Source: a virus (lineage: Duplodnaviria; Caudoviricetes). Taken from it: a stretch of DNA of 47,888 bases. Under the pieces are notes generated by a model. The model was not told the DNA's origin. It worked only from the letters and a program-made list of their open reading frames with translations, and searched no databases. Below are positions 167-47,888 of the stretch, piece by piece. Numbering within the stretch: position 1 is the first letter of the stretch; each line of letters begins with the position of its first letter. A program made the position numbers and the translations under genes. Location of the stretch: positions 1 to 47,888 of the IMG/VR virus record IMGVR_UViG_3300015263_000331; one strand, given 5' to 3'.

Positions 167-235
167 GATCCTGTCTCTTCAGAGTGGGTAGGATCGGATT
201 CCCACTGACCCCGGTCCTCAGCCGGGGTTTCGACA
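167..235 (-). ncRNA. Hammerhead ribozyme HHR1, type II with pseudoknot
   Basis: Minus strand reads UGUC-GAAA-CCCCGG(CUGAGGA)CCGGGG-UC/AGUGGG(AAUCCGAUCCUA)CCCACU-CUGAAGA-GACA-GGAUC. Full CUGANGA/GAAA/NUH core and three stems; loop I GAUCC pairs with 3' tail GGAUC. Predicted cut between 207 and 206. Confidence 0.95.
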
Positions 236-1024
236 TTACCCTTCCCAGTCGTCAGCCGTGATGGCGGGCTTCTGGGGCACGAACCCGGTGACACGGTCCA
301 TGAGATCATGGAGGCGGATCGTCCGGGGCATCAACTCGATCAGCGACACGCCCTTGTTGGCGGGCTTCAGGGCCTCGGTGGCGGCGTTGAACATGCGCCA
401 TGCGGTCTGCTCGCCGTGGTCGTAGGACGGCTCGTCCCACTCCTGCACGACCTTACCGACCCGGCTGGGGTTGATCACCTCGGACCGCAGCATGTCGACG
501 ATGATGTGGTCGGCCTGCCGCTTGTCCTTGATCCGGTACTCGCGATAGTGCTCCCAGCGGGCCTCCTGATTGACCTTGTAGAGCTGGGTCTGGTTGACCG
601 CATTGCCGATCAGGTCAGGCAGGTCGCGCATGATGTGGACCGTGTGCTTGCGGCTGAAACGAATCTCAGCCGAGAACGCAAGGTTGTCACACACGAAGAC
701 GTGTGAGCCGAAGCCCATCGCAGCCGGGAAGCTCTTGTCGATCGAGTTCCGAATGCCGACGACCAGCGCGAACTCTTCCTGAACTGAGCTTCCATTCAGA
801 AGCTCGATCAGGCCGAAGTACCGGGCCTTGTCGTGGGTCAGGCTGTGCGCCTGATTGCCGAAACGAAAGCCCATCGCCTGCAGCCGCTCTTCGGCCATAT
901 CCACGACGGTCTGGTGACCGACCGGAAAGTAGGTGTCCGTAGCCGGAGGCAGGACGATTCCTTCAAGCTCTTCGCGCTCGACGTGGCTGGCACCGCAGTG
1001 CAGCATAAGGTTTGCTCTTGCCAT
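236..1024 (-). CDS. DUF932-family protein
   Basis: 262 aa with motif GIRNSIDKSFPAAMGFGSHVFVCDNLAFS...RKHT and C-terminal AWRMFNAATEALK, typical of DUF932; SD CAGAGGAG at 1039-1032. Confidence 0.85.
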   Translation of the reverse strand: MARANLMLHCGASHVEREELEGIVLPPATDTYFPVGHQTVVDMAEERLQAMGFRFGNQAHSLTHDKARYFGLIELLNGSSVQEEFALVVGIRNSIDKSFPAAMGFGSHVFVCDNLAFSAEIRFSRKHTVHIMRDLPDLIGNAVNQTQLYKVNQEARWEHYREYRIKDKRQADHIIVDMLRSEVINPSRVGKVVQEWDEPSYDHGEQTAWRMFNAATEALKPANKGVSLIELMPRTIRLHDLMDRVTGFVPQKPAITADDWEG

Positions 1025-1050
1025 GGTAGTTCTCCTCTGTTGAAGTGTGT

Positions 1051-1113
1051 TTGGCAGTCTCTTCAGACCCGGAATGCCAATCCGGGTGACGCCCCCTCCG
1101 GGGCGTTTCGACT
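1051..1113 (-). ncRNA. Hammerhead ribozyme HHR2, type II with pseudoknot
   Basis: Minus strand reads AGUC-GAAA-CGCCCC(GGAG)GGGGCG-UC/ACCCGGA(UUGGCAU)UCCGGGU-CUGAAGA-GACU-GCCAA. Loop I UUGGC pairs with tail GCCAA. Predicted cut between 1088 and 1087. Confidence 0.95.
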
Positions 1114-1204
1114 AGTGTGTGAACAGATAGCCAAGGCTCAGCCAGATGGCCGAGTAGGCAGCGATGGCAGCGTAGGCTTGGGCAAGCGGGATGCGGTATT
1201 TCAT
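1112..1204 (-). CDS. 30-aa hydrophobic membrane peptide (MKYRIPLAQAYAAIAAYSAIWLSLGYLFTH)
   Basis: ATGA overlap with the upstream stop, SD GAGGTG, one hydrophobic stretch; its TAG overlaps the start of HHR2. Confidence 0.65.
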   Translation of the reverse strand: MKYRIPLAQAYAAIAAYSAIWLSLGYLFTH

Positions 1205-1413
1205 GATCCCACCTCACAAGCCTTCAGGAAGCGCTCACGATCGAAGTTGGGGTTCTCGTGGCGGAAGTAGTCCGCCAGCGCTCCAGCCATCGACCTGCGA
1301 GTGGCCTCAGCACCCTTCTTAAAACCGGGTGTCAGGTACTTATCATCAGGATCGAACTTGCGATCACGAACGATGCTTGCGATAGCCTCGAAATGCTTGC
1401 GCGTCATGCTCAT
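1201..1413 (-). CDS. 70-aa early phage protein (MSMTRKHFEAIA...ENPNFDRERFLKAC)
   Basis: True start is the ATG at 1413 after SD CAGAGGAG (1427-1420); the longer ORF-track version runs through HHR3. MTRKHF and NPxFDRERFLxAC motifs recur in small phage proteins. Confidence 0.85.
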   Translation of the reverse strand: MSMTRKHFEAIASIVRDRKFDPDDKYLTPGFKKGAEATRRSMAGALADYFRHENPNFDRERFLKACEVGS

Positions 1414-1431
1414 GTTGGTCTCCTCTGTCGG

Positions 1432-1498
1432 TGGCAGTCTCATCAGTATCGGAATGCCAATCCGATATACCTGCCCCTCCTCTAGGACAGGTTTCAAC
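1432..1498 (-). ncRNA. Hammerhead ribozyme HHR3, type II with pseudoknot, GUA cleavage triplet
   Basis: Minus strand reads GUU-GAAA-CCUGUCC(UAGAGGAG)GGGCAGG-UA/UAUCGGA(UUGGCAU)UCCGAUA-CUGAUGA-GAC-UGCCA. Loop I UGGCA pairs with tail UGCCA. Predicted cut between 1468 and 1467. Confidence 0.92.
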
Positions 1499-1529
1499 GA
1501 TGGCCGGGATTAACCCACACCGGCAGGGT

Positions 1530-1570
1530 CCGTTCACCCTCCCGGCACTAGAAGCCGGGAGGGTTTGCGG
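1530..1570. other. Strong GC-rich intergenic hairpin, possible processing, stability or terminator-like element
   Basis: ACCCTCCCGGC-N7-GCCGGGAGGGT perfect 11-bp inverted repeat (1536-1564), extendable by CCG/CGG; no clear U-tract. Confidence 0.55.
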
Positions 1571-1573
1571 TAG

Positions 1574-2062
1574 CTATACAGCTTCACGCTTGGTGGCTTC
1601 GTCACCAGTGGCGATCTTCAGGGTGAAGTGGAACCCACGGCGCTTCTTCGCCGGGGTGGCTTCGGACTGCGTGTAGCGAACCGTGTCGATGTATTCGACC
1701 AGATCGTCGTCCAGATCAGGCACGAAGTTCCTGATCTTGTAGTGAGCCTCGGGCGGCAGGTAGACCTTGTAGATGCAGTAGCCTTGCGGCTGCATCGTAC
1801 GAGCATTCATATCACGCTCTTCCTGCAGGCGCTGGCACTCCCTGAGAGAGGCATGTGTCTGCCAGTAGGCAGCGCTGCTGGTGAAGAAGTGGTACTCACG
1901 CTTGCGATCTTTTCTCCAGCGGTCCTCGCGGAAGCTAGAGATCACTTCGAGGCAATCCTCGAAATCATCAGCCGTGGCGTCACTGCCAGACTGGCGCAGA
2001 TCGGGGATCAAGGTTTCACGCAGATGGGTGACCAGTGCGTAGATATTGTCGAAGCTATGCAT
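1574..2062 (-). CDS. First early gene, hypothetical protein (162 aa)
   Basis: SD CAGAGGAG at 2076-2069, ATG at 2062; no family recognised. Confidence 0.85.
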   Translation of the reverse strand: MHSFDNIYALVTHLRETLIPDLRQSGSDATADDFEDCLEVISSFREDRWRKDRKREYHFFTSSAAYWQTHASLRECQRLQEERDMNARTMQPQGYCIYKVYLPPEAHYKIRNFVPDLDDDLVEYIDTVRYTQSEATPAKKRRGFHFTLKIATGDEATKREAV

Positions 2063-2084
2063 TTCGTTCTCCTCTGTTGATGGG

Positions 2085-2152
2085 TGGCCTGTCTCATCAG
2101 AGCGGGTAGGCCATCTCCCGCTGACCCCGTCGTGGTGACCGGGGTTTCAACA
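2085..2152 (-). ncRNA. Hammerhead ribozyme HHR4, type II with pseudoknot
   Basis: Minus strand reads UGUU-GAAA-CCCCG(GUCACCACGA)CGGGG-UC/AGCGGG(AGAUGGCCUA)CCCGCU-CUGAUGA-GACA-GGCCA. Loop I UGGCC pairs with tail GGCCA. Predicted cut between 2123 and 2122. Confidence 0.95.
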
Positions 2153-2418
2153 ATCAGAGGAGGAGATTGTTGAGTAGGGCGAGTCGTTACCTTCTGTCCC
2201 CGAGCGGTTTACGGCTTGCTCCGCTTGCCTCGGGAAGGTCGCTACTACCAACGTCGCTTCTACAGGTTCCTGCTGACATTCGCCTTTCGGCCAAGTGGTC
2301 AGACTACGCAGCGTCTTCCCGTCCCCAGTTTCACCGAGTGGGTCTCGTCGAAGTCTTGGCTTCGCTTCCCCGGCCAGTGCCAGATGGGGGCTGTGGGCCG
2401 TGGTCACGTCCTGTGACA
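2153..2418 (-). ncRNA. Structured 5' leader of the early transcript, candidate novel ncRNA
   Basis: About 265 nt between the promoter and HHR4 with no SD-led ORF. Contains a 5' hairpin GUCAC/GUGAC, a GCC-GAAA-GGC tetraloop and a long interrupted stem at 2252-2169. Confidence 0.5.
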
Positions 2419-32765: not shown

Positions 32766-34586
32766 ATGAGCGAGATCACCCTATACGAAGGAGCAGCAGC
32801 CGCAACACCACCCTCTGGCGGAATCACCATCTATGCCAAGGTCAACCACCGGCTTTATTGGAAAACCGACACGGGCGTCGAGATTCCGTTTTATCCCGAG
32901 GGCGCGGGCACAGGTGATCTGAACTCTGACGGCAGCGTCGCCCTAACCGTCAACTGGGACATGGGCAACTACCAGATGCGGGCGCTGCAGTTCTACCCAG
33001 ATGCCACCACTGGCACACCGCCATTTGTGGTCGACTCTACGACTTTAGTCGCAAACCTGAACGTCGATCAGCTCGATGGCTACGAGGCGTCCGCCTTCGT
33101 CCTGCTGGCAGCAACCGATATCTCCACTGCTGGGTTCTTCCTCGACGAAGACAACATGATCTCGGATGATCCAACCAAGGTAGCCAGCCAGCAATCGATC
33201 AAGGCTTACGTCGATATGAAGACGGCTGGGGCCCTGATGTTCCAGACGGGCTATAACGCCAGCACCAATAGCCCCGACCTGACGACCTCGCCGAACTCTA
33301 TCCTGAAGGGCCAGTACTGGGTGGTCAGCGCTGCCGGAACCTCGTTCTACAGCCTGAATCTGGAGATAGGGGACACCTTGATTGCTAATCAGGATGATCC
33401 CTCGCTCGTGGGTCATTGGACGGTCCTACAGACGAATCTCGATGCGGCCAGTATCAAGACCCTGTATGAATCGAACAGCAACACCAATGCCTATCCAGAT
33501 GCTGACGTGGCGGTAGTTGCCGCAGCCTTGGTCGATGGTGATTTTTCCGGGGCCAATGGCGAGATGCAGAAAACGGGCAGCGGAACCTACAGCACAATCA
33601 AGTGCGACTTTGCGGCCACTGCCGATCCAGATGCAAACTATGACAACACGGCTGGCTGGGCAGTTGGTAGTCGCATTATCAACGTCAACAACGACACGGT
33701 GTGGACGTGTGTTGATGCGAGCACTGCCGCTGCGTTATGGACGGAAGGCGGTGGCGCGGGTGGACTGGTACCACAGTTCAAGACCGCCAGTTTCACAGCC
33801 GTCGCAGGCAACATGTATTTCTGCGACACGTCAGGTGGGCCAATAGCCGTCACCTATCCTGCCGGAGTTGATCAGGACAACATCGCAATCTATGGCGATG
33901 CAACGTCAAGAGCGAACAACATCACCATCACGCCCGATGGCTCCGAGACCATCGACAACGACACCTCGTTCGTCATCGACCAGAACTTTGGTCAGGCGAA
34001 TACTGCCTATGATGCCGCCAACACCAACTGGGTCTGTGCCTTAACCGGCATGCCAGAGGTGGTTAATGTCGAGGCTTACATCATAGGAGCACAGACTTTT
34101 ATTTTTAGAGCTGGCGACTTTGGTTTGGGTGGTACACCACCGTCACTAGGAACGGCTGCTGGGAACTATGGCGTTAAGGTTCTGGCATTTGATGATTCAG
34201 CCTATGAAGCGGCAAACTTGGCCTTGCCGATGCCCAACCGATGGAACGAGGGACAGTTCAAATATCGGATAATCTGGCAACCACTTTCAACAGGCACCGG
34301 GACAGTTCAGTGGGGAGTTTATGGAAACGCCGCCACCGATGGTAGTGTTATGCCAACTTCTTCGGTGGGCGCTTCTGTTGAAGATGCTGCTAGTGGAACG
34401 GCCAATGCTTGGCAAACCACCATATGGTCAGCATGGTTTTCATTCGGCAACACCCCTGATTTGACAAAGATGATAGCCCTCAGGGTGCAGCGTAATGGTC
34501 CGTCTGGGCCTGATACTTATGTAGGAGATGCAAACTTTATCGCCATCGAACTTCAGTGGGTCTCTAACGCAGCAACGGATGATTAA
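32766..34586 (+). CDS. Tail fibre protein (mosaic)
   Basis: 606 aa; PFVVDSTTLVANLNVDQLDG, LDEDNMISD...SQQSIKAYVD, GWAVGSRIINV fibre modules. Confidence 0.8.
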   Translation: MSEITLYEGAAAATPPSGGITIYAKVNHRLYWKTDTGVEIPFYPEGAGTGDLNSDGSVALTVNWDMGNYQMRALQFYPDATTGTPPFVVDSTTLVANLNVDQLDGYEASAFVLLAATDISTAGFFLDEDNMISDDPTKVASQQSIKAYVDMKTAGALMFQTGYNASTNSPDLTTSPNSILKGQYWVVSAAGTSFYSLNLEIGDTLIANQDDPSLVGHWTVLQTNLDAASIKTLYESNSNTNAYPDADVAVVAAALVDGDFSGANGEMQKTGSGTYSTIKCDFAATADPDANYDNTAGWAVGSRIINVNNDTVWTCVDASTAAALWTEGGGAGGLVPQFKTASFTAVAGNMYFCDTSGGPIAVTYPAGVDQDNIAIYGDATSRANNITITPDGSETIDNDTSFVIDQNFGQANTAYDAANTNWVCALTGMPEVVNVEAYIIGAQTFIFRAGDFGLGGTPPSLGTAAGNYGVKVLAFDDSAYEAANLALPMPNRWNEGQFKYRIIWQPLSTGTGTVQWGVYGNAATDGSVMPTSSVGASVEDAASGTANAWQTTIWSAWFSFGNTPDLTKMIALRVQRNGPSGPDTYVGDANFIAIELQWVSNAATDD

Positions 34587-41351: not shown

Positions 41352-44300
41352 ATGGACAAGGATTATTCGTCGTTTGCGGAAGATAAAACCTATACGCAGG
41401 AAACGGAAGCTCCACCTTTAACCGCATCAGCAGCGCTAGAGATACCAGAATCAAGCGACTATTACTCGTCGTTTTCTAGCGATATCGACTATACCAAGGG
41501 CCCCGAACCAGCTCAGGGTGCGCCGGGAGAAGAACCCTCTTTCCTGAAGAACCTCGTCGCTGAGTGGGGTGTTGGTTCCGGTCAGCTCGCTCAAGGTATC
41601 GGGCAACTGATGGACGACTGGCTCGGATGGAAGAGCGGAGCTGAATTCGTCCGCAACGCAGGGCAGCGAGCCGAGGAGTACTGGAAAGGCTCGATCCCCG
41701 AGGACGAGTGGAACCGGATCGAGAAGGAGACTCAGAAGAACTTTATGACCCTCAAGGACGAGGGCGACTGGTGGAACCCCATGGACTGGGAGCGGGGCGA
41801 CATGGGTCTCGAAGGCTTGCTCTATATGGGCATGCAGTCCATGCCAGCCACGGTGGCCACCATGCCGATCGCCGGACTTGGTGGTAAGTTGGGGATGGCT
41901 GCGATCAGCAAGATACCGGGCGTATCCAAGCTGATAACCACTTCTAAGGTCGGAAAACTAGCTGAGGCGGCTGGCGGATCGGCGGAAGCGATCAAGGCCG
42001 GGAAGCGGGCCGATAAGATTCTAAACCGGATTCAGGGAACCCTCATGGGCACTACCTATGGTGGCGCTGAGGGCGCGATTTCGGCTGGCCAGACGGGCTA
42101 CCAAATCAATCAGCAGGTTGACAACATGCGGTTCGAGGACCTGCTGTTGAAAAGTGACTATGCCCGGAACGTATACGAGGCCCACATCGCCGAGGGTATG
42201 GACCCTGAGGAGGCGGCGAACCAGACACGGGAAATGGTCAAGGAGAAGGCCAGATCAGACGCCATGTGGAAGACCATGGTCACCACAAGCGCTCTGGGCG
42301 CTCCCATGGGCATGTTCTTCTCCTCCGTGCTGCTCAGGACACCATGGGCTAAGGCTTTCGCTTCCGGCAAGGTGGCTGGATTGGTTGAGGGCGCAGCAGG
42401 TGAGGCCGCACAGGAGACTTTGCAATCGGCCTTTGAGCAGTATTGGCAGAACGAGGCGACACAGAAGTATGCGGACAAGACGATCAAGCTCTCCGATGGT
42501 GTGTTCGAGGCTGCTCTCACAGGTGGTATTGTCGGCGGTGTTCTGGGTGGCGCTTTCGGCGTGGCTGGTACGCCAACTAAGGCTCAGGCCCAGAGGGAAG
42601 AAACCCGCACCCAGAACCTGAAGGACAACCTGAAGGTTGAGGTGCATTCACGACTGGCCGCTTCTAGTCTGATGCAGAACTATGGCAAGACGCCAGAGCA
42701 GGCTACTGAGATTATCACCCCGATTATGCAGCGCTACTCGGAAACCAGAAATCTGGTTGAGGCGGCTGCTGACCTGAAGTTCCTTGAGATGACAGGTCGT
42801 ACTCGTGAGCGTGGCCTTGATAATGTTGGGCAGGCCCAGCCGGATTACGGCGACCTCGATGTCAGTGTTGAAGAGGAGGCTGGGCAGGAGCGCAACGGCC
42901 ACACCCTGAAGTACCCAGCCGGGAAGATCAACGGCACGGTCGGCGCTGACGGCATGAACGTCGATATCGTTGGTCCGGGCACCGGCAATCGCATCTACAT
43001 CGCCGAGAAGTTGGCCCCTGATGGTACCTTCGAGCAGCACAAGGTCCTGTATGGCTTCGAAAATGAAGAGCAGGCCATGGATGCGTTCTACAGCACATGG
43101 GGCCGGGACGACGCCGACAACCTCGGCAACCTGACTGAGGTTAACAATCAGGAGCTGAACGACGCTCTGGCCCGCTGGACACGTGACTATGGAACTGAAC
43201 TGGGACCAGCCACCGATGAGCCGCTGACGCCAGAAGAGGACCTCGCGCTTCGCAAGGATGAAGACTTGCAGGTTGGCATCGAGGATGTCCAGTCCCAGCT
43301 TGATTATGTACAGAACGAGGACGGCTCTTACCCGACCGAAGCTGAGCCTCTGCTCAACCGCCTGAAGGTGCTACAGGAAGAGAAACAGCGCCGGATCAAC
43401 TCTGGTGAGTGGCAGCAAGAAGCGGGCGTGGAACAGCCCGTGGAACAAGGTGAACAGGGTTCCCAGCCAGAGGGCGAAAATCAAGCAACCACACAGGTTT
43501 CAGAGGAAGCTCCACGTGGAACAGAAGGGGGTGAAACACCACTCAGCCTGCGCGAGGGTGGCCGTACCATGCGCGGGCCATACCCGGAGCGGATACGGCC
43601 TTCCGAGGCTGCTGGTGCTGGTGAGAGGGCGGTCGATGTCGATTTCTTGCATCTCTCTCGCGAACCTGATCTGCAGGTATTGAAGGGCGAGAAGGCTAGC
43701 ACCTCCGCCGTCCGGCGTACGCGAGCCAAGGTGGGTCGTGAAGCCACTGCCAATCGAGTTTACATCTACGCCCAGCAAGAGAAGGCGATGGGTGGCCGTT
43801 CTGTTAGTGGCAATGAGTCCGTTGTCTCTCGGGCCTCGGATCAGGTCTACAGCGGGACCGCTACCAACCTGTACGACTTTGATGCTGATCCGCTGAACCT
43901 GCTGCAGGGGGCAAAGATGCCCTCTGAAAGCATGGAAGCCGCCATCCTCAAGGCGGGTTACGACGGTTGGTACTACGAGAAGTTCCCGAAAATACATGGC
44001 GGCATGGGCGTCATCCTCAACAAGGATGTGGCGGCGATGTATCACGGTCGCGCCCAGAAGGTTAAGGAGCTGTTGCGCGAGCCGAGCATGTTCCAACATC
44101 TGGTCGCGTGGGAAACCATCCCCGGCAGTGCCTCCCCATTTGCCGCAGCCACCTCTCTGCTGACCCCGGCAGAAGCTCAGGTGCTGAACGAGAAGCTGCT
44201 GCTCGGCGTGGTGATCCAGAAAGACCTCCGTAGTGATATGCTGGCCTCGGCCATGGGACTTCCATCGCGGCTGCTGTTACAGCGCTGGGGCGGATATTCC

Positions 44301-47300
44301 GGTAAGGTCATGCCGTCGATGCAGGTTGGTCTTGACAGCGCCCTGCAAGCCAACCTGTATTCGGCGGCGATTAAGCTGATCTACCAGCAGGATGCCGTGC
44401 CATGGATGCATGCCACGCCCAAGGGGGACAGGGACGGCATCGAAATCGAGCTGGACAGAACACCGACCCAGAAGCAGCTCGAAGCCTTCCAGCGTGAACT
44501 TGAGAAAAATCTCGGGCAGTTTGTTGGGTTCACGGTCATGCCGGATGGCAGGATCATGGTCGGGAACTACGATGAGAATGTATCCAGAGCGCAGTTTGTA
44601 GCGCGAGTGGATCGCTCGGCAGCAGTGCTTCCAAGTGGTACAATGACCTCCTTCAAGTTCGAGGGCGCGTATCGTGACGAAAGCCAGCAAGAAACTAAAG
44701 AACTTGCGCTACGCTGGGCAAGCGAAGCCGGATCACCGAATCTACAAGAGTGGATTTCAACTGCTCAGGCCCGTGCGGCAAAGGCCGCAGGGGAATTCTT
44801 CAGCTCCCTCCCAAGAAGCCACGCCGCCCGCCAAGCCTACGAAAACTCAGCAGTAACCCCGCTCAGCCTGCTGCCGGAGGAGTTCCAGCTCACTCCTCCC
44901 GACGAAGAGGCTGAGGCCGAATACAAGGACCCATTCTATTCAGCCCTTCTCCGAACGGTGGAGGAGGGTTCGCAGCGTGGTATGCCAAAGAAGGGAGCCA
45001 AGGCCATCAAGGAATGGCTGCTTGCTGCCCAGAGGAAAGGTCTGTTCAAGAAGGAGGAGTACGACTGGCTGGACCTTGATCGTGTGTTCGAGGATTACAG
45101 CGAGGTCGGCGCTCCCGAAATGAAGCGTCAGGACCTACTCGATTACGTTAAGAGAAATCAGGTCAGGATTGAGGACTCCTTTGCTGGTGCGCCAGACCGT
45201 GCAGCGTTCCGTCCTTACGATATAGCCCTCGGTGATCTGCTGGATTACATCTATACCCTCAGTGCCACCAGCGGGATCAATGAGAGCGCCCTGAAGATGT
45301 GGGCCAACGGCACTGACGTCGGGGGCATAGAAGCTATCCCAGAGCATCAGCGTAATGAGCTGCTGAGGCGTCATGAAAAGTTCATCCAGCTTGAGGCGCA
45401 GTCCATCGAGCGCGGCCTCAAGACGGATCGACCGGCAACCAAGTATGAGGAATACAGTCTGGCCGGTGGTCGGAATGCTCGCGAACTACTACTGGTTGTC
45501 CCCGGTATTGGTGAGTGGGGCGATGGGCATATATGGAATCAGGACGGTCGAAAGCGGGCGGTTGTTCATGTCCGATTCAACGACCGGATCAACAGCGAGG
45601 GTGGGCGTACGCTGTTTATCGAGGAGGTGCAGTCAGACCGCCATCAGGCCGGGCGCAAGGAAGGGTATCAGGCTCCTGATTTGAGCCGGAAGAATAGGGC
45701 GCTCAGGGAGCAGTTGACGCGAGTTGGTCGAGGTATCGACAAGATTGTTAAGGAGAACAACAATCTTGGATTTGATAACTCAGCAGAAGCGCAACTTTCA
45801 CTTGTTTCGAGAATGAGGCATGTGGGACGTGGTGAAGGCATTAGGTTGCACAATACAGTCTTCGGGTTTGAGCTGAACACTACCGAAGAAGCCGCGCAAC
45901 TTGGAGACCTGTTATGGGAAGCCAAGCGCCTTCGCCGCCTCCTTGATGATGTGGAATCCCAGCAGCGTATAGGCGTTCCACCAACGCCCTTTATGAAGAC
46001 CCAGACATGGGCCATGGTGGCGATGAAGCGCATGATCCGTTACGCCGCTGAGAACGGCTACGATGCCGTGGCATGGACGCCGGGAGATGTTCAGAATGAA
46101 CGCTATGGATTAGAGCGCTCGATAGATGCCATTAGATATAAGCCAACGGAAGGGTATCTCTACATCGAGTACTCCAATGGCAATGAGGATGTGGAGGAGC
46201 TTAGCGCGACCGAGATAGAAGAAGGAATGGGCATTGCAGGGCAGGTGCCAGAATGGATGCGGATTGAGATGTCCAGCAGCATAGATCAAGCTCACCAAGA
46301 TGCTGAATATTATTACGAACCAACCCTTCTCAAAGACACAGACTATATCGGCGAGGTGGCTGATCAACAAGGATTTGACCAAGAAGATTATGAGCCGGAA
46401 GGCTACGTCATCATCAACAATAGTGGGGACGTCGAGCGCACGTATGATGGTCAGATCGAGTGGTTTGAGGATGAGGAGGAGGCTCGCAAATGGGCGCTGG
46501 AAAAGGTCGAAGCGTCTGATGACGGTTTAATCATCTGGGGTGACGAGGAAGACAAGGTCGGTGGTGAAGGGATGCGCGGCTTCTATGATGACATCCTCGT
46601 CAACGAGGTGCAGAAGTTCGTCAAGAAATGGGGCGCTCAGGTAAGACCGTTCGGTACCGCCATCGACACCGAGGAAACCTTCGGAGATGAGATCGCCGGG
46701 GATATCAGCGATGAGGCGCTGAGGGTGGCTTTCGAAGAGAACCAGACGGTAGATATGGAAGGCAACGCATGGGGGTTGTCCTTTGAAGGGCCGGAGGGGG
46801 TACATCTGCTCAAGATGACGCCTGACTTGGTGGAGGCCGCGATGGGCGGTTTCCCGCTGTTTTCTCTGGGGCCGGACGCTAAACCCAGCGATCAGGCCCG
46901 CGCTCGCGAGCACGCAGAACGCCTCTATAACCGCCCCGACTGGACCGTGATCAACAAGGAGGTTGATGCCTCCGTGGCTGGAGCCGTCACACCTGAAGAG
47001 ATTCAGGACGCCATGGAAGAGTTCACGCTCATGGGCACCATGAGCCGGTACTTCCGCAAGTGGTTCGGCAACTCCCAGACGGTGGACGCCTTCGGCCAGC
47101 CGATCGTTTTTTATCATGGCAGTGGCGAGGGCATGATTGGTCGATTCCTGCCTAATCAGAGGGGTCAAATCTTCGTTTCCACCAACCCGGCCTTTGCTGG
47201 CGCATTCGCCGAGGTAAACTCTATGACCTATGGCTGGTCGGTGGACGAAGAGGACCCCAATTACACTCGCGCAGCTCCGACCATCTACCCTCTGTATGTT

Positions 47301-47888
47301 CGGGCCAACAAGATATTTGACTTCCGTAACAAAGCGATCCGGCGCAGCTATTCCCGCTGGCTGCAACAGAACAACATCTACTCAGGAACCCGGCTGAATC
47401 AGGAACTGGCCAACGTTCAGAACGGCGATTGGGAGACGATCGAGAGGGGCGCTGTTCAGGCCTTCATCAAGGAGCGTGGCTACGATGCGTTCTACCTGAT
47501 GGAGCAGGGGTCTCTGAACCTTGGCTTGTTCGATCCCAGAAACATCAAGTCGGCAGTGGGGAACGCCGGGACCTTCCTGAATGGCACCGCAGACATGCTG
47601 CTGTCACTGGACCCGAACGAGGTGGGTAACGAGCTGAGCCGTCGCCTTAATCTGTACCAGTTGCTGGCTCATCTGCAGAAGACCACCACTGCCGATTCCA
47701 CCTTGAAGGCGGTGCGGGCGCACATCAATGAAGGACTGGATAAGGGCCTGTTCGATCGTCGCGCCCTGAAGGCCCTGTCCGGCAAGGAAAATAGCGGAGC
47801 TGAGATCATACGAAAGATTAAGGCCTCGATCCGTGCCGGTGCCCCGATCACTGCGCGAACAGCGCTGTCACGCACGGTGGTCAACAAC
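41352..47888 (+). CDS. Giant polyvalent / internal virion protein, at least 2179 aa, truncated at the right edge
   Basis: ATG 41352; same frame spot-translated at 42843, 43623, 45423 and 47043. Contains an InPase-like domain (~42843-43180), an ART-like domain (~43640-44050), an EEVQSD domain (~44930-46650) and an ART-PolyVal-like domain (FRKWFGNS...FYHGS...GYDAF...FDPRNIKSAVGN, ~47050-47580). Every codon was not checked. Confidence 0.85.
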   Translation, partial: MDKDYSSFAEDKTYTQETEAPPLTASAALEIPESSDYYSSFSSDIDYTKGPEPAQGAPGEEPSFLKNLVAEWGVGSGQLAQGIGQLMDDWLGWKSGAEFVRNAGQRAEEYWKGSIPEDEWNRIEKETQKNFMTLKDEGDWWNPMDWERGDMGLEGLLYMGMQSMPATVATMPIAGLGGKLGMAAISKIPGVSKLITTSKVGKLAEAAGGSAEAIKAGKRADKILNRIQGTLMGTTYGGAEGAISAGQTGYQINQQVDNMRFEDLLLKSDYARNVYEAHIAEGMDPEEAANQTREMVKEKARSDAMWKTMVTTSALGAPMGMFFSSVLLRTPWAKAFASGKVAGLVEGAAGEAAQETLQSAFEQYWQNEATQKYADKTIKLSDGVFEAALTGGIVGGVLGGAFGVAGTPTKAQAQREETRTQNLKDNLKVEVHSRLAASSLMQNYGKTPEQATEIITPIMQRYSETRNLVEAAADLKFLEMTGRTRERGLDNVGQAQPDYGDLDVSVEEEAGQERNGHTLKYPAGKINGTVGADGMNVDIVGPGTGNRIYIAEKLAPDGTFEQHKVLYGFENEEQAMDAFYSTWGRDDADNLGNLTEVNNQELNDALARWTRDYGTELGPATDEPLTPEEDLALRKDEDLQVGIEDVQSQLDYVQNEDGSYPTEAEPLLNRLKVLQEEKQRRINSGEWQQEAGVEQPVEQGEQGSQPEGENQATTQVSEEAPRGTEGGETPLSLREGGRTMRGPYPERIRPSEAAGAGERAVDVDFLHLSREPDLQVLKGEKASTSAVRRTRAKVGREATANRVYIYAQQEKAMGGRSVSGNESVVSRASDQVYSGTATNLYDFDADPLNLLQGAKMPSESMEAAILKAGYDGWYYEKFPKIHGGMGVILNKDVAAMYHGRAQKVKELLREPSMFQHLVAWETIPGSASPFAAATSLLTPAEAQVLNEKLLLGVVIQKDLRSDMLASAMGLPSRLLLQRWGGYSGKVMPSMQVGLDSALQANLYSAAIKLIYQQDAVPWMHATPKGDRDGIEIELDRTPTQKQLEAFQRELEKNLGQFVGFTVMPDGRIMVGNYDENVSRAQFVARVDRSAAVLPSGTMTSFKFEGAYRDESQQETKELALRWASEAGSPNLQEWISTAQARAAKAAGEFFSSLPRSHAARQAYENSAVTPLSLLPEEFQLTPPDEEAEAEYKDPFYSALLRTVEEGSQRGMPKKGAKAIKEWLLAAQRKGLFKKEEYDWLDLDRVFEDYSEVGAPEMKRQDLLDYVKRNQVRIEDSFAGAPDRAAFRPYDIALGDLLDYIYTLSATSGINESALKMWANGTDVGGIEAIPEHQRNELLRRHEKFIQLEAQSIERGLKTDRPATKYEEYSLAGGRNARELLLVVPGIGEWGDGHIWNQDGRKRAVVHVRFNDRINSEGGRTLFIEEVQSDRHQAGRKEGYQAPDLSRKNRALREQLTRVGRGIDKIVKENNNLGFDNSAEAQLSLVSRMRHVGRGEGIRLHNTVFGFELNTTEEAAQLGDLLWEAKRLRRLLDDVESQQRIGVPPTPFMKTQTWAMVAMKRMIRYAAENGYDAVAWTPGDVQNERYGLERSIDAIRYKPTEGYLYIEYSNGNEDVEELSATEIEEGMGIAGQVPEWMRIEMSSSIDQAHQDAEYYYEPTLLKDTDYIGEVADQQGFDQEDYEPEGYVIINNSGDVERTYDGQIEWFEDEEEARKWALEKVEASDDGLIIWGDEEDKVGGEGMRGFYDDILVNEVQKFVKKWGAQVRPFGTAIDTEETFGDEIAGDISDEALRVAFEENQTVDMEGNAWGLSFEGPEGVHLLKMTPDLVEAAMGGFPLFSLGPDAKPSDQARAREHAERLYNRPDWTVINKEVDASVAGAVTPEEIQDAMEEFTLMGTMSRYFRKWFGNSQTVDAFGQPIVFYHGSGEGMIGRFLPNQRGQIFVSTNPAFAGAFAEVNSMTYGWSVDEEDPNYTRAAPTIYPLYVRANKIFDFRNKAIRRSYSRWLQQNNIYSGTRLNQELANVQNGDWETIERGAVQAFIKERGYDAFYLMEQGSLNLGLFDPRNIKSAVGNAGTFLNGTADMLLSLDPNEVGNELSRRLNLYQLLAHLQKTTTADSTLKAVRAHINEGLDKGLFDRRALKALSGKENSGAEIIRKIKASIRAGAPITARTALSRTVVNN

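Follow-up and report, generated by a model that had tools for sequence, protein, structure and literature searches.

Four Type II Hammerhead Motifs in a Leftward Gene Unit of an Uncultured Tailed Phage and a Candidate Translation Gate at the First of Them

The Leftward Unit and Its Hammerhead Motifs

The stretch of DNA analyzed here (the window) is a 47,888-nt contig of an uncultured tailed phage (IMG/VR record IMGVR_UViG_3300015263_000331), whose plus strand carries genes for a portal protein, a major head protein, RusA, and a polyvalent protein that give it its phage context. Bases 1-2450 form a unit read leftward, in which a promoter-like site is followed by a leader of ~270 nt and then by open reading frames (ORFs) of 162, 70, 30, 262 (a DUF932 protein), and at least 47 amino acids (aa), and its layout indicates that it is probably an early operon. 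Several co-oriented ribozyme motifs are intergenic in this phage operon, namely four minus-strand type II hammerheads, here called H1 to H4 by their position in the window, with predicted cut sites after positions 207, 1088, 1468, and 2123. Their sequence and topology are those of type II hammerheads, their pairings covary, and they are placed between a stop codon and a Shine-Dalgarno (SD) sequence. We put at roughly 0.8 the probability that the four motifs self-cleave what is probably an early single transcript into gene-length messages. All coordinates within the unit refer to the minus strand.

H1 (167-235) comprises the 5′ strand of stem II (235-232), GAAA (231-228), stem III (227-209), a GUC triplet with H17 at 207, a stem I region of 24 nt (206-183), CUGAAGA (182-176), and a pseudoknot tail (171-167). 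H2 (1051-1113) has H17 at 1088, a 21-nt stem I region with the loop UUGGCAU, and a pseudoknot tail directly 3′ of stem II. H3 (1432-1498) has a GUA triplet with H17 at 1468, a G10.1·U11.1 wobble, and a 21-nt stem I region, and H4 (2085-2152), the first of the array, has H17 at 2123, the same wobble, a 22-nt stem I region, and a 1-nt bulge in stem III. In order from H1 to H4, N7 is A, A, U, and U, and the triplet is GUC, GUC, GUA, and GUC. All four have the core elements CUGANGA, GAAA, and NUH in hammerhead order, stems I (6-7 bp) and III (5-8 bp) closed by loops, an open stem II (3-5 bp), and a pseudoknot of 5-6 bp joining loop I to the 3′ tail. The helices listed in a preliminary description of this DNA, which had sorted the copies into two pairs, were letter-exact on the minus strand: stem I AGUGGG/CCCACU with pseudoknot GAUCC/GGAUC in H1, AGCGGG/CCCGCU with UGGCC/GGCCA in H4, and ACCCGGA/UCCGGGU in H2 and UAUCGGA/UCCGAUA in H3, both with the loop UUGGCAU.

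Searching the window on both strands with a type II descriptor turned up these four motifs only. Against the Rfam model RF02276 (gathering threshold 37 bits), H2 (49.6 bits) and H4 (38.1 bits) pass, H3 scores below gathering (25.3 bits), and H1 gave no match at E ≤ 5; H1 and H3 belong to the type II class by structure and not to RF02276 by score. A 24-nt homolog in locus L150 has a GAUCC pseudoknot identical to that of H1, and blastn of H2 against annotated phages returned no match.

Placement Between Stop Codons and Shine-Dalgarno Sequences

The distances from cut site to ATG are 63, 63, 54, and 60 nt for H1 to H4, and an AGAGGAG site is common to all. The SD after H1, CAGAGGAG, lies at 151-158 and serves an ATG at 143 whose ORF runs off the window, and those after H2, H3, and H4 lie at 1032-1039 (ATG at 1024), 1420-1427 (ATG at 1413), and 2069-2076 (ATG at 2062), respectively. 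The DUF932 gene between H2 and H1 (236-1024; 262 aa; PF06067, E 9.5e-6) has a stop codon ending 4 nt before the GAAA of H1, and the 30-aa ORF (1112-1204), which overlaps the preceding stop, has its own stop ending 2 nt before the GAAA of H2. The 70-aa ORF after H3 (1201-1413) resembles unnamed phage protein clusters, and the 162-aa ORF (1574-2062), the first gene after H4, has no known family; a family search with the 162-, 70-, 30-, and 47-aa ORFs assigned none.

This placement is general among homologs. Five pattern scans and the loci of DUF932 genes yielded 376 unique ribozymes, with four likely-chance matches removed (L281, L294, L318, and L400, which some of the anti-SD comparisons below still included). 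An SD and start codon fall within 45 nt after the ribozyme in 308 of 371 homologs (62 ± 7 for random positions), and in 295 of the 371 no more than 12 nt separate the end of a stop codon from GAAA (control 41 ± 6), the rows in both counts not being independent. Loci with at least two ribozymes number 83 (overlapping fetches counted twice, the window included), and in all of them the ribozymes are co-oriented. Four loci (L612, L043, L065, and L095) hold arrays of eight to nine ribozymes in ~6 kb, each before an SD. A fifth, H1-like copy was seen ~460 nt to the left of the window start (X1 record 1, 50.7 kb, positions 32782-32862, possibly the same DNA), and as it lies beyond position 1 the array has at least five members.

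We propose that transcription would start from the promoter-like site at 2453 and that the RNA would be cut after each NUH (H17). Since stem II is the open stem, cleavage would leave stem III on the upstream piece and stem I with the pseudoknot on the downstream piece. The 3′ end of the former would be the stem III hairpin, bearing a 2′,3′-cyclic phosphate, and the downstream message would begin with a 5′-OH on stem I and the pseudoknot, 54-63 nt before the start codon. Cleavage would then uncouple the genes and set their stability in a RiboJ-like manner, the stabilized or insulated message ends being proposed because of the analogy with RiboJ, and the ribozyme together with its ribosome binding site (RBS) would serve as a constant junction between genes where cargo is exchanged. 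H1 and H2 would cut at full speed, and H3 and H4 more slowly on account of their G·U closing pair and, in H3, the GUA triplet.

Selection on the Fold

Pseudoknot pairing was demanded by no filter in assembling the homologs, and at least 4 bp of stem I pairing was demanded by the descriptor. A pseudoknot of at least four Watson-Crick pairs is present in 178 of the 253 ribozymes with a stem I region of at least 20 nt, compared with 22.6 ± 4.2 (maximum 38 in 1000) in a tail-swap control, and in 4 of the 123 with shorter (<20 nt) regions. Filtering the 88 homologs of H4 geometry at 88% identity left an alignment of 60 rows, in which 95.0% of cells paired and double changes occurred at all 11 pairs. 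Covariation exceeded the maximum of 300 tree-based simulations at five of the six stem I pairs and three of the five pseudoknot pairs (8 of 11 in total), and no off-structure pair exceeded it; the test was our own R-scape-like implementation with a tree-based null, not R-scape. Among homologs of H2/H3 geometry (30 of 36 rows), the pseudoknot hardly varies, in part owing to a scan pattern that fixed the loop, and the identical loops of H2 and H3 mean that the window holds no covariation for their pseudoknot.

A sister phage, ~90% identical to the window (X2 record 9, 65.5 kb, with pieces in X3), allowed the same question to be put to individual copies, using the differences listed between the two. 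In stem I of H1, pair 206/183 changes from A-U to U-A and 204/185 from U-A to C-G, and in stem I of H3, 1466/1448 changes from A-U to G-C and 1465/1449 from U-A to C-G; every one of the eight changes listed in these two stems thereby belongs to one of four double compensatory pairs (rough chance 8e-6). H2 is unchanged over 1052-1113, and 31-1113 carries 100 differences. More distant relatives from metagenomes, L156 and L157 (DUF932 proteins 76% and 79% identical), also have ribozymes at the H1 slot, with pseudoknots that differ yet pair: GAUCC/GGAUC in the window, GAGCU/AGCUC in L156, and UAAGC/GCUUA in L157. The sister-phage compensatory changes and the covariation in 60 homologs above the tree-based null bear out the earlier proposal that selection acts on the catalytic fold including the pseudoknot, and the larger alignment that had been suggested as a check gave significant pairs in both stem I and the pseudoknot. 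From these comparisons of sequence, selection on the fold appears well supported.

The genes around the ribozymes have turned over. From 1113 to 1388 the sister phage skips 274 nt of the window and has 640 other letters instead, so that the genes between H3 and H2 are replaced, and gene exchange at ribozyme boundaries is also seen in L157. The sister phage additionally inserts ~520 nt at the SD after H3, and the exchange points match ribozyme/SD boundaries (window 1113-1428). Patterns built on the shared CAACAGAGGAG flank recovered no clade members; among the matches listed, none of 12 genome loci and three of 97 viral loci had ribozymes, and 4 loci were counted as having a match.

Position 11.1 and the Predicted Activity of H3 and H4

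The preliminary description had the core invariant except at the variable positions, a claim that does not hold at position 11.1, which is C in H1 and H2 and U in H3 and H4, so that the closing pair of stem II is G-C in the former and G·U in the latter. The 10.1-11.1 pair is the most conserved after A15.1-U16.1 (PMC3088659). All 200 unique homologs of our first set (two pattern scans) have G-C there, and the 127 raw matches of the second scan pattern, of which 123 passed the type II descriptor, all have C before GAAA. A scan of the full IMG/VR aimed at U11.1 gave 90 pattern matches, nine with a descriptor match and six of those convincing. The rarity of this G·U closing pair suggests that H3 and H4 may cut more slowly. 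U11.1 was found in 3 of 13 GUA ribozymes and in 0 of 127 GUC ribozymes (p=0.0006), an association that could reflect either epistasis or relaxed selection. Two pairs of near-identical ribozymes, L113/L299 and L479/L458, differ by C11.1 to U plus C17 to A. The idea that U11.1 needs A17, thereby avoiding pairing of GUC with GAC, was not upheld, as the competitor pairing probability was ~0 and U11.1 exists together with C17 in H4, L157 (twice), L253, L280, and L322.

Several points weigh against the processing of this transcript by all four ribozymes. Both H3 and H4 carry U11.1, and when folded with ViennaRNA without the pseudoknot, native stem I had a probability of ~0 in H4 and 0.08-0.74 in H3. 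The sister copy of H4 (X3) lists U10.1, A17, and stem I changes 2.1 and 2.2 without listed partners; this copy rests on one contig with a depth of 5.4, and three further differences (one C>T and two T>G by totals) fit partners at 2121-2122 or other places. Relatedness among the homolog rows means that they are not independent, and the search itself selected in part for stem I pairing. Cleavage in a 5′-untranslated region alone left expression in E. coli unchanged in one synthetic study of twister ribozymes (PMC5052635), and a stabilizing role is consequently not a given. Finally, both cleavage and transcript processing in this phage are predictions from its DNA. On balance we consider H1 and H2 likely to be active and are less sure of H3 and H4.

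These points also raise an explanation that we find possible, if doubtful, in which H3 and H4 are decaying under relaxed selection and only H1, H2, and the fifth copy cut efficiently. The scarcity of U11.1 (six convincing cases from the 90 pattern matches in the full scan) fits such decay, as does its enrichment among GUA ribozymes, which is expected if tolerated defects pile up, and the sister copy of H4 looks worse still. However, the stem I changes of H3 in the sister phage are fully compensatory, both ribozymes of L157 carry U11.1 with perfect stems, indicating that the variant is heritable in the clade, and a natural stem II start of U10.1-U11.1 is on record (Perreault 2011, PMC3088659).

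A Candidate Translation Gate at H4

The 8-mer CAGAGGAG has four sense copies in the operon, which are the four SDs, and one antisense copy just 5′ of H4. This anti-SD, CUCCUCUG (2155-2162), is an 8-bp complement of the common SD and the sole antisense copy in the operon. It is held in the loop of a predicted 9-bp hairpin, P0 (2147-2173; -10.3 kcal/mol, with 0 of 200 shuffles folding as well), the 3′ arm of which takes the 5′ strand of H4 stem II, G12, and A13. It is conceivable that H4 acts as a translation gate, whereby the anti-SD would either hide the SD of the first gene until the RNA is cut or sit in P0, which would keep the ribozyme inactive and the SD accessible; once released, the leader could also pair in trans with the three other SDs, which are identical. 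We regard this gate as tentative and on present evidence unlikely, and it adds to the transcript-processing explanation rather than replacing it.

In silico, the precursor forms a perfect 8-bp anti-SD:SD helix whose duplex energy (-15.9 kcal/mol) ranks 1 of 319 homologs, and the SD of the gene behind H4 is unpaired with a probability of 0.01 in the uncut RNA and 0.43 in the 3′ product. The two states of H4 are near equal in energy, at -29.6 kcal/mol for ribozyme with hidden SD and -29.5 kcal/mol for P0 with free SD, values that leave out the pseudoknot. In two further lineages, first-in-array ribozymes behind long leaders have anti-SDs of other sequence, each fitting its own SD (GUCUCC/GGAGAC in L006 and L678; CUUCCC/GGGAAG in L079 and L095), although L678 was found through a biased CTCCT pattern. 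Among 14 first-in-array copies, with the window excluded and relatives merged, own anti-SD pairing exceeded swapped pairing at an uncorrected P=0.025, and internal copies had no excess of own-SD pairing. That value is, however, one of five subsets; the count of helices of at least 6 bp was 2 of 14 (P=0.12), and a wider set of 37 gave P=0.15. A scan for CTCCT upstream of ribozymes gave just 13 ribozyme loci among 100 matches, with no visible excess by a rough estimate, and the signal at H4 was noticed after the fact. Extended to the family, the model would have the first ribozyme of some arrays be a natural cleavage-gated switch, with an anti-SD extending stem II, an iso-energetic hairpin, tuning by G10.1·U11.1, and damping of the other genes in trans, a proposal in which we place little confidence as yet.

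Two Architectures Rather Than Two Local Lineages

The two pairs of copies had been described as two subfamilies. These stand as two of at least four architectures and fall as local lineages, since both recur and mix in unrelated phages. The architectures comprise a 21-nt type (H2 and H3), a 22-24-nt type with a spacer A (H1 and H4), a 23-24-nt variant, and a 17-18-nt type without the pseudoknot. The last, which has a 4-bp stem II and the same stop-ribozyme-SD-start spacing, was the commonest in our least biased scan (loci L326-L454). Among the 83 multi-ribozyme loci, 22 mix defined types. The four copies themselves are mosaics: stem I groups H1 with H4 and H2 with H3, and N7 and position 11.1 together group H1 with H2 and H3 with H4.

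It is therefore improbable that the two pairs arose as local lineages by duplication inside this phage, the split of the copies the other way by N7 and 11.1 being joined by further evidence against it. Both architectures of the window co-occur in L012 and L021, the slot before DUF932 has a different architecture in L156, and the identities of in-window partners (0.74 and 0.70) are at the level of unrelated phages (0.73-0.78). By stem I and tail only, the in-window partner ranks 5, 12, 12, and 61. Duplication would account for the CAGAGGAG flank common to all four copies and for the affinity of H1 and H4, which share stem III CCCCGG; by whole-ribozyme identity H4 is the best of 375 matches to H1, and H1 is the fourth best to H4. 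Some shared descent of H1 and H4 is thus possible. That the four copies are inert repeats or recombination handles, paired only through recent duplication, we consider very improbable, because, although the sister phage has exchanged genes at these boundaries, the stems diverge by compensatory change that lowers between-copy identity, the catalytic residues are all kept, and the pseudoknot covaries.

Other Features of the Unit and the Window

The putative promoter (2425-2453) is a sigma-70-like TTGACA-17-TAAAGT, a consensus match only, with two such sites found versus 1.1 expected from shuffling. A search for sequencing runs containing this DNA listed none from RNA, which carries no information on its expression. 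The leader (2140-2425) folds no better than shuffled sequence (z -0.36), and it had no credible Rfam match and no homolog among the fetched loci. An 86-aa ORF within it, whose stop is formed by U11.1-G12-A13, was set aside as likely spurious, lacking a well-spaced SD and undergoing a 20-nt length change in the sister phage. In the window (2153-2418) and in L006 (1890-2270), L678 (680-900), and L095 (5460-5710), the first ribozyme lies behind a long leader that appears not to code for protein, and such leaders would be freed as stand-alone RNAs of about 250-400 nt. Between the stop of the 162-aa ORF and H3 are two hairpins (1497-1575), the first with an 11-bp stem; 0 of 200 shuffles fold as well, and the hairpins have no U-tract after them.

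A search of viral contigs for relatives of the single DUF932 protein found none, and a literature search on DUF932 turned up no paper naming it in the portion of the literature covered. DUF932 as a carrier of the ribozyme was rejected, as the descriptor matched in just 5 of 80 DUF932 loci, the two closest among them. On the plus strand, the polyvalent protein (41352-47888; >2,170 aa) has InPase and ART-PolyVal domains and runs off the contig end.

Comparison with Known Systems and Significance

Type II hammerheads, with their pseudoknot between loop I and the 3′ tail and their clusters flanking prophage genes, were described previously (Perreault 2011, PMC3088659). That work disrupted the pseudoknot of the class and rescued it with compensatory changes at 0.5 mM Mg2+, and reported that three tandem arrays cleaved in vitro and one in E. 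coli. H1 to H4 have the topology, core, 5-6 bp loop I-tail pseudoknot, and short stem II of that class and of RF02276; they differ in that H1 and H3 miss the gathering score and H3 and H4 have G10.1·U11.1. The prophage clusters (PMC3088659, Fig. 3; the Agrobacterium ardA array) have the same co-oriented ribozymes between changing genes, with gene-length mRNAs proposed, whereas the genes here are DUF932 and unknowns. The split into 21-nt and 22-24-nt spacer-A architectures was not found in the sections of that paper that the comparison covered, and its main text, which notes one haloviral ribozyme 13 nt before a start codon, contains neither "ribosome binding" nor "Shine" and does not quantify the stop-ribozyme-SD-start spacing. 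Processing of polycistrons is among the roles suggested in a 2019 review (PMC6765202).

RiboJ (PMC6206723) is likewise a hammerhead just before an RBS that leaves a fixed, hairpin-capped 5′ end. It is, however, an engineered part derived from sTRSV with an added hairpin, whereas H1 to H4 are natural type II motifs whose cleavage would give the upstream piece a hairpin too, and the likeness is one of working rather than of membership. In engineered ribozyme switches that sequester the SD (PMC5052635), the SD is released by cleavage, as would be the predicted anti-SD:SD helix of H4; the H4 case is a prediction from sequence, its anti-SD lies 5′ of the open stem II, and no aptamer is evident. A literature search for a natural phage example of an SD-hiding, cleavage-gated switch turned up none in the sources it reached. 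The pseudoknotted hammerhead of PDB 8YDC (Zhan et al. 2024, PMC11300833) has the same core and also a pseudoknot as tertiary contact, but its pseudoknot is of a different form, made by the helix II loop and an additional stem-loop.

H1 to H4 are conserved hammerheads in an arrangement that has been known since 2011, and the purpose of self-cleaving ribozymes in bacteria and phages was considered in the 2019 review to need further work (PMC6765202). The compact operon of four ribozymes, with a sister phage that provides both compensatory change and swapped genes, makes a convenient test bed, one of very many. Its interest rests mostly on the G·U variant of this clade and on the candidate gate at H4 which, if true, would be a natural counterpart to a design so far seen in synthetic biology.

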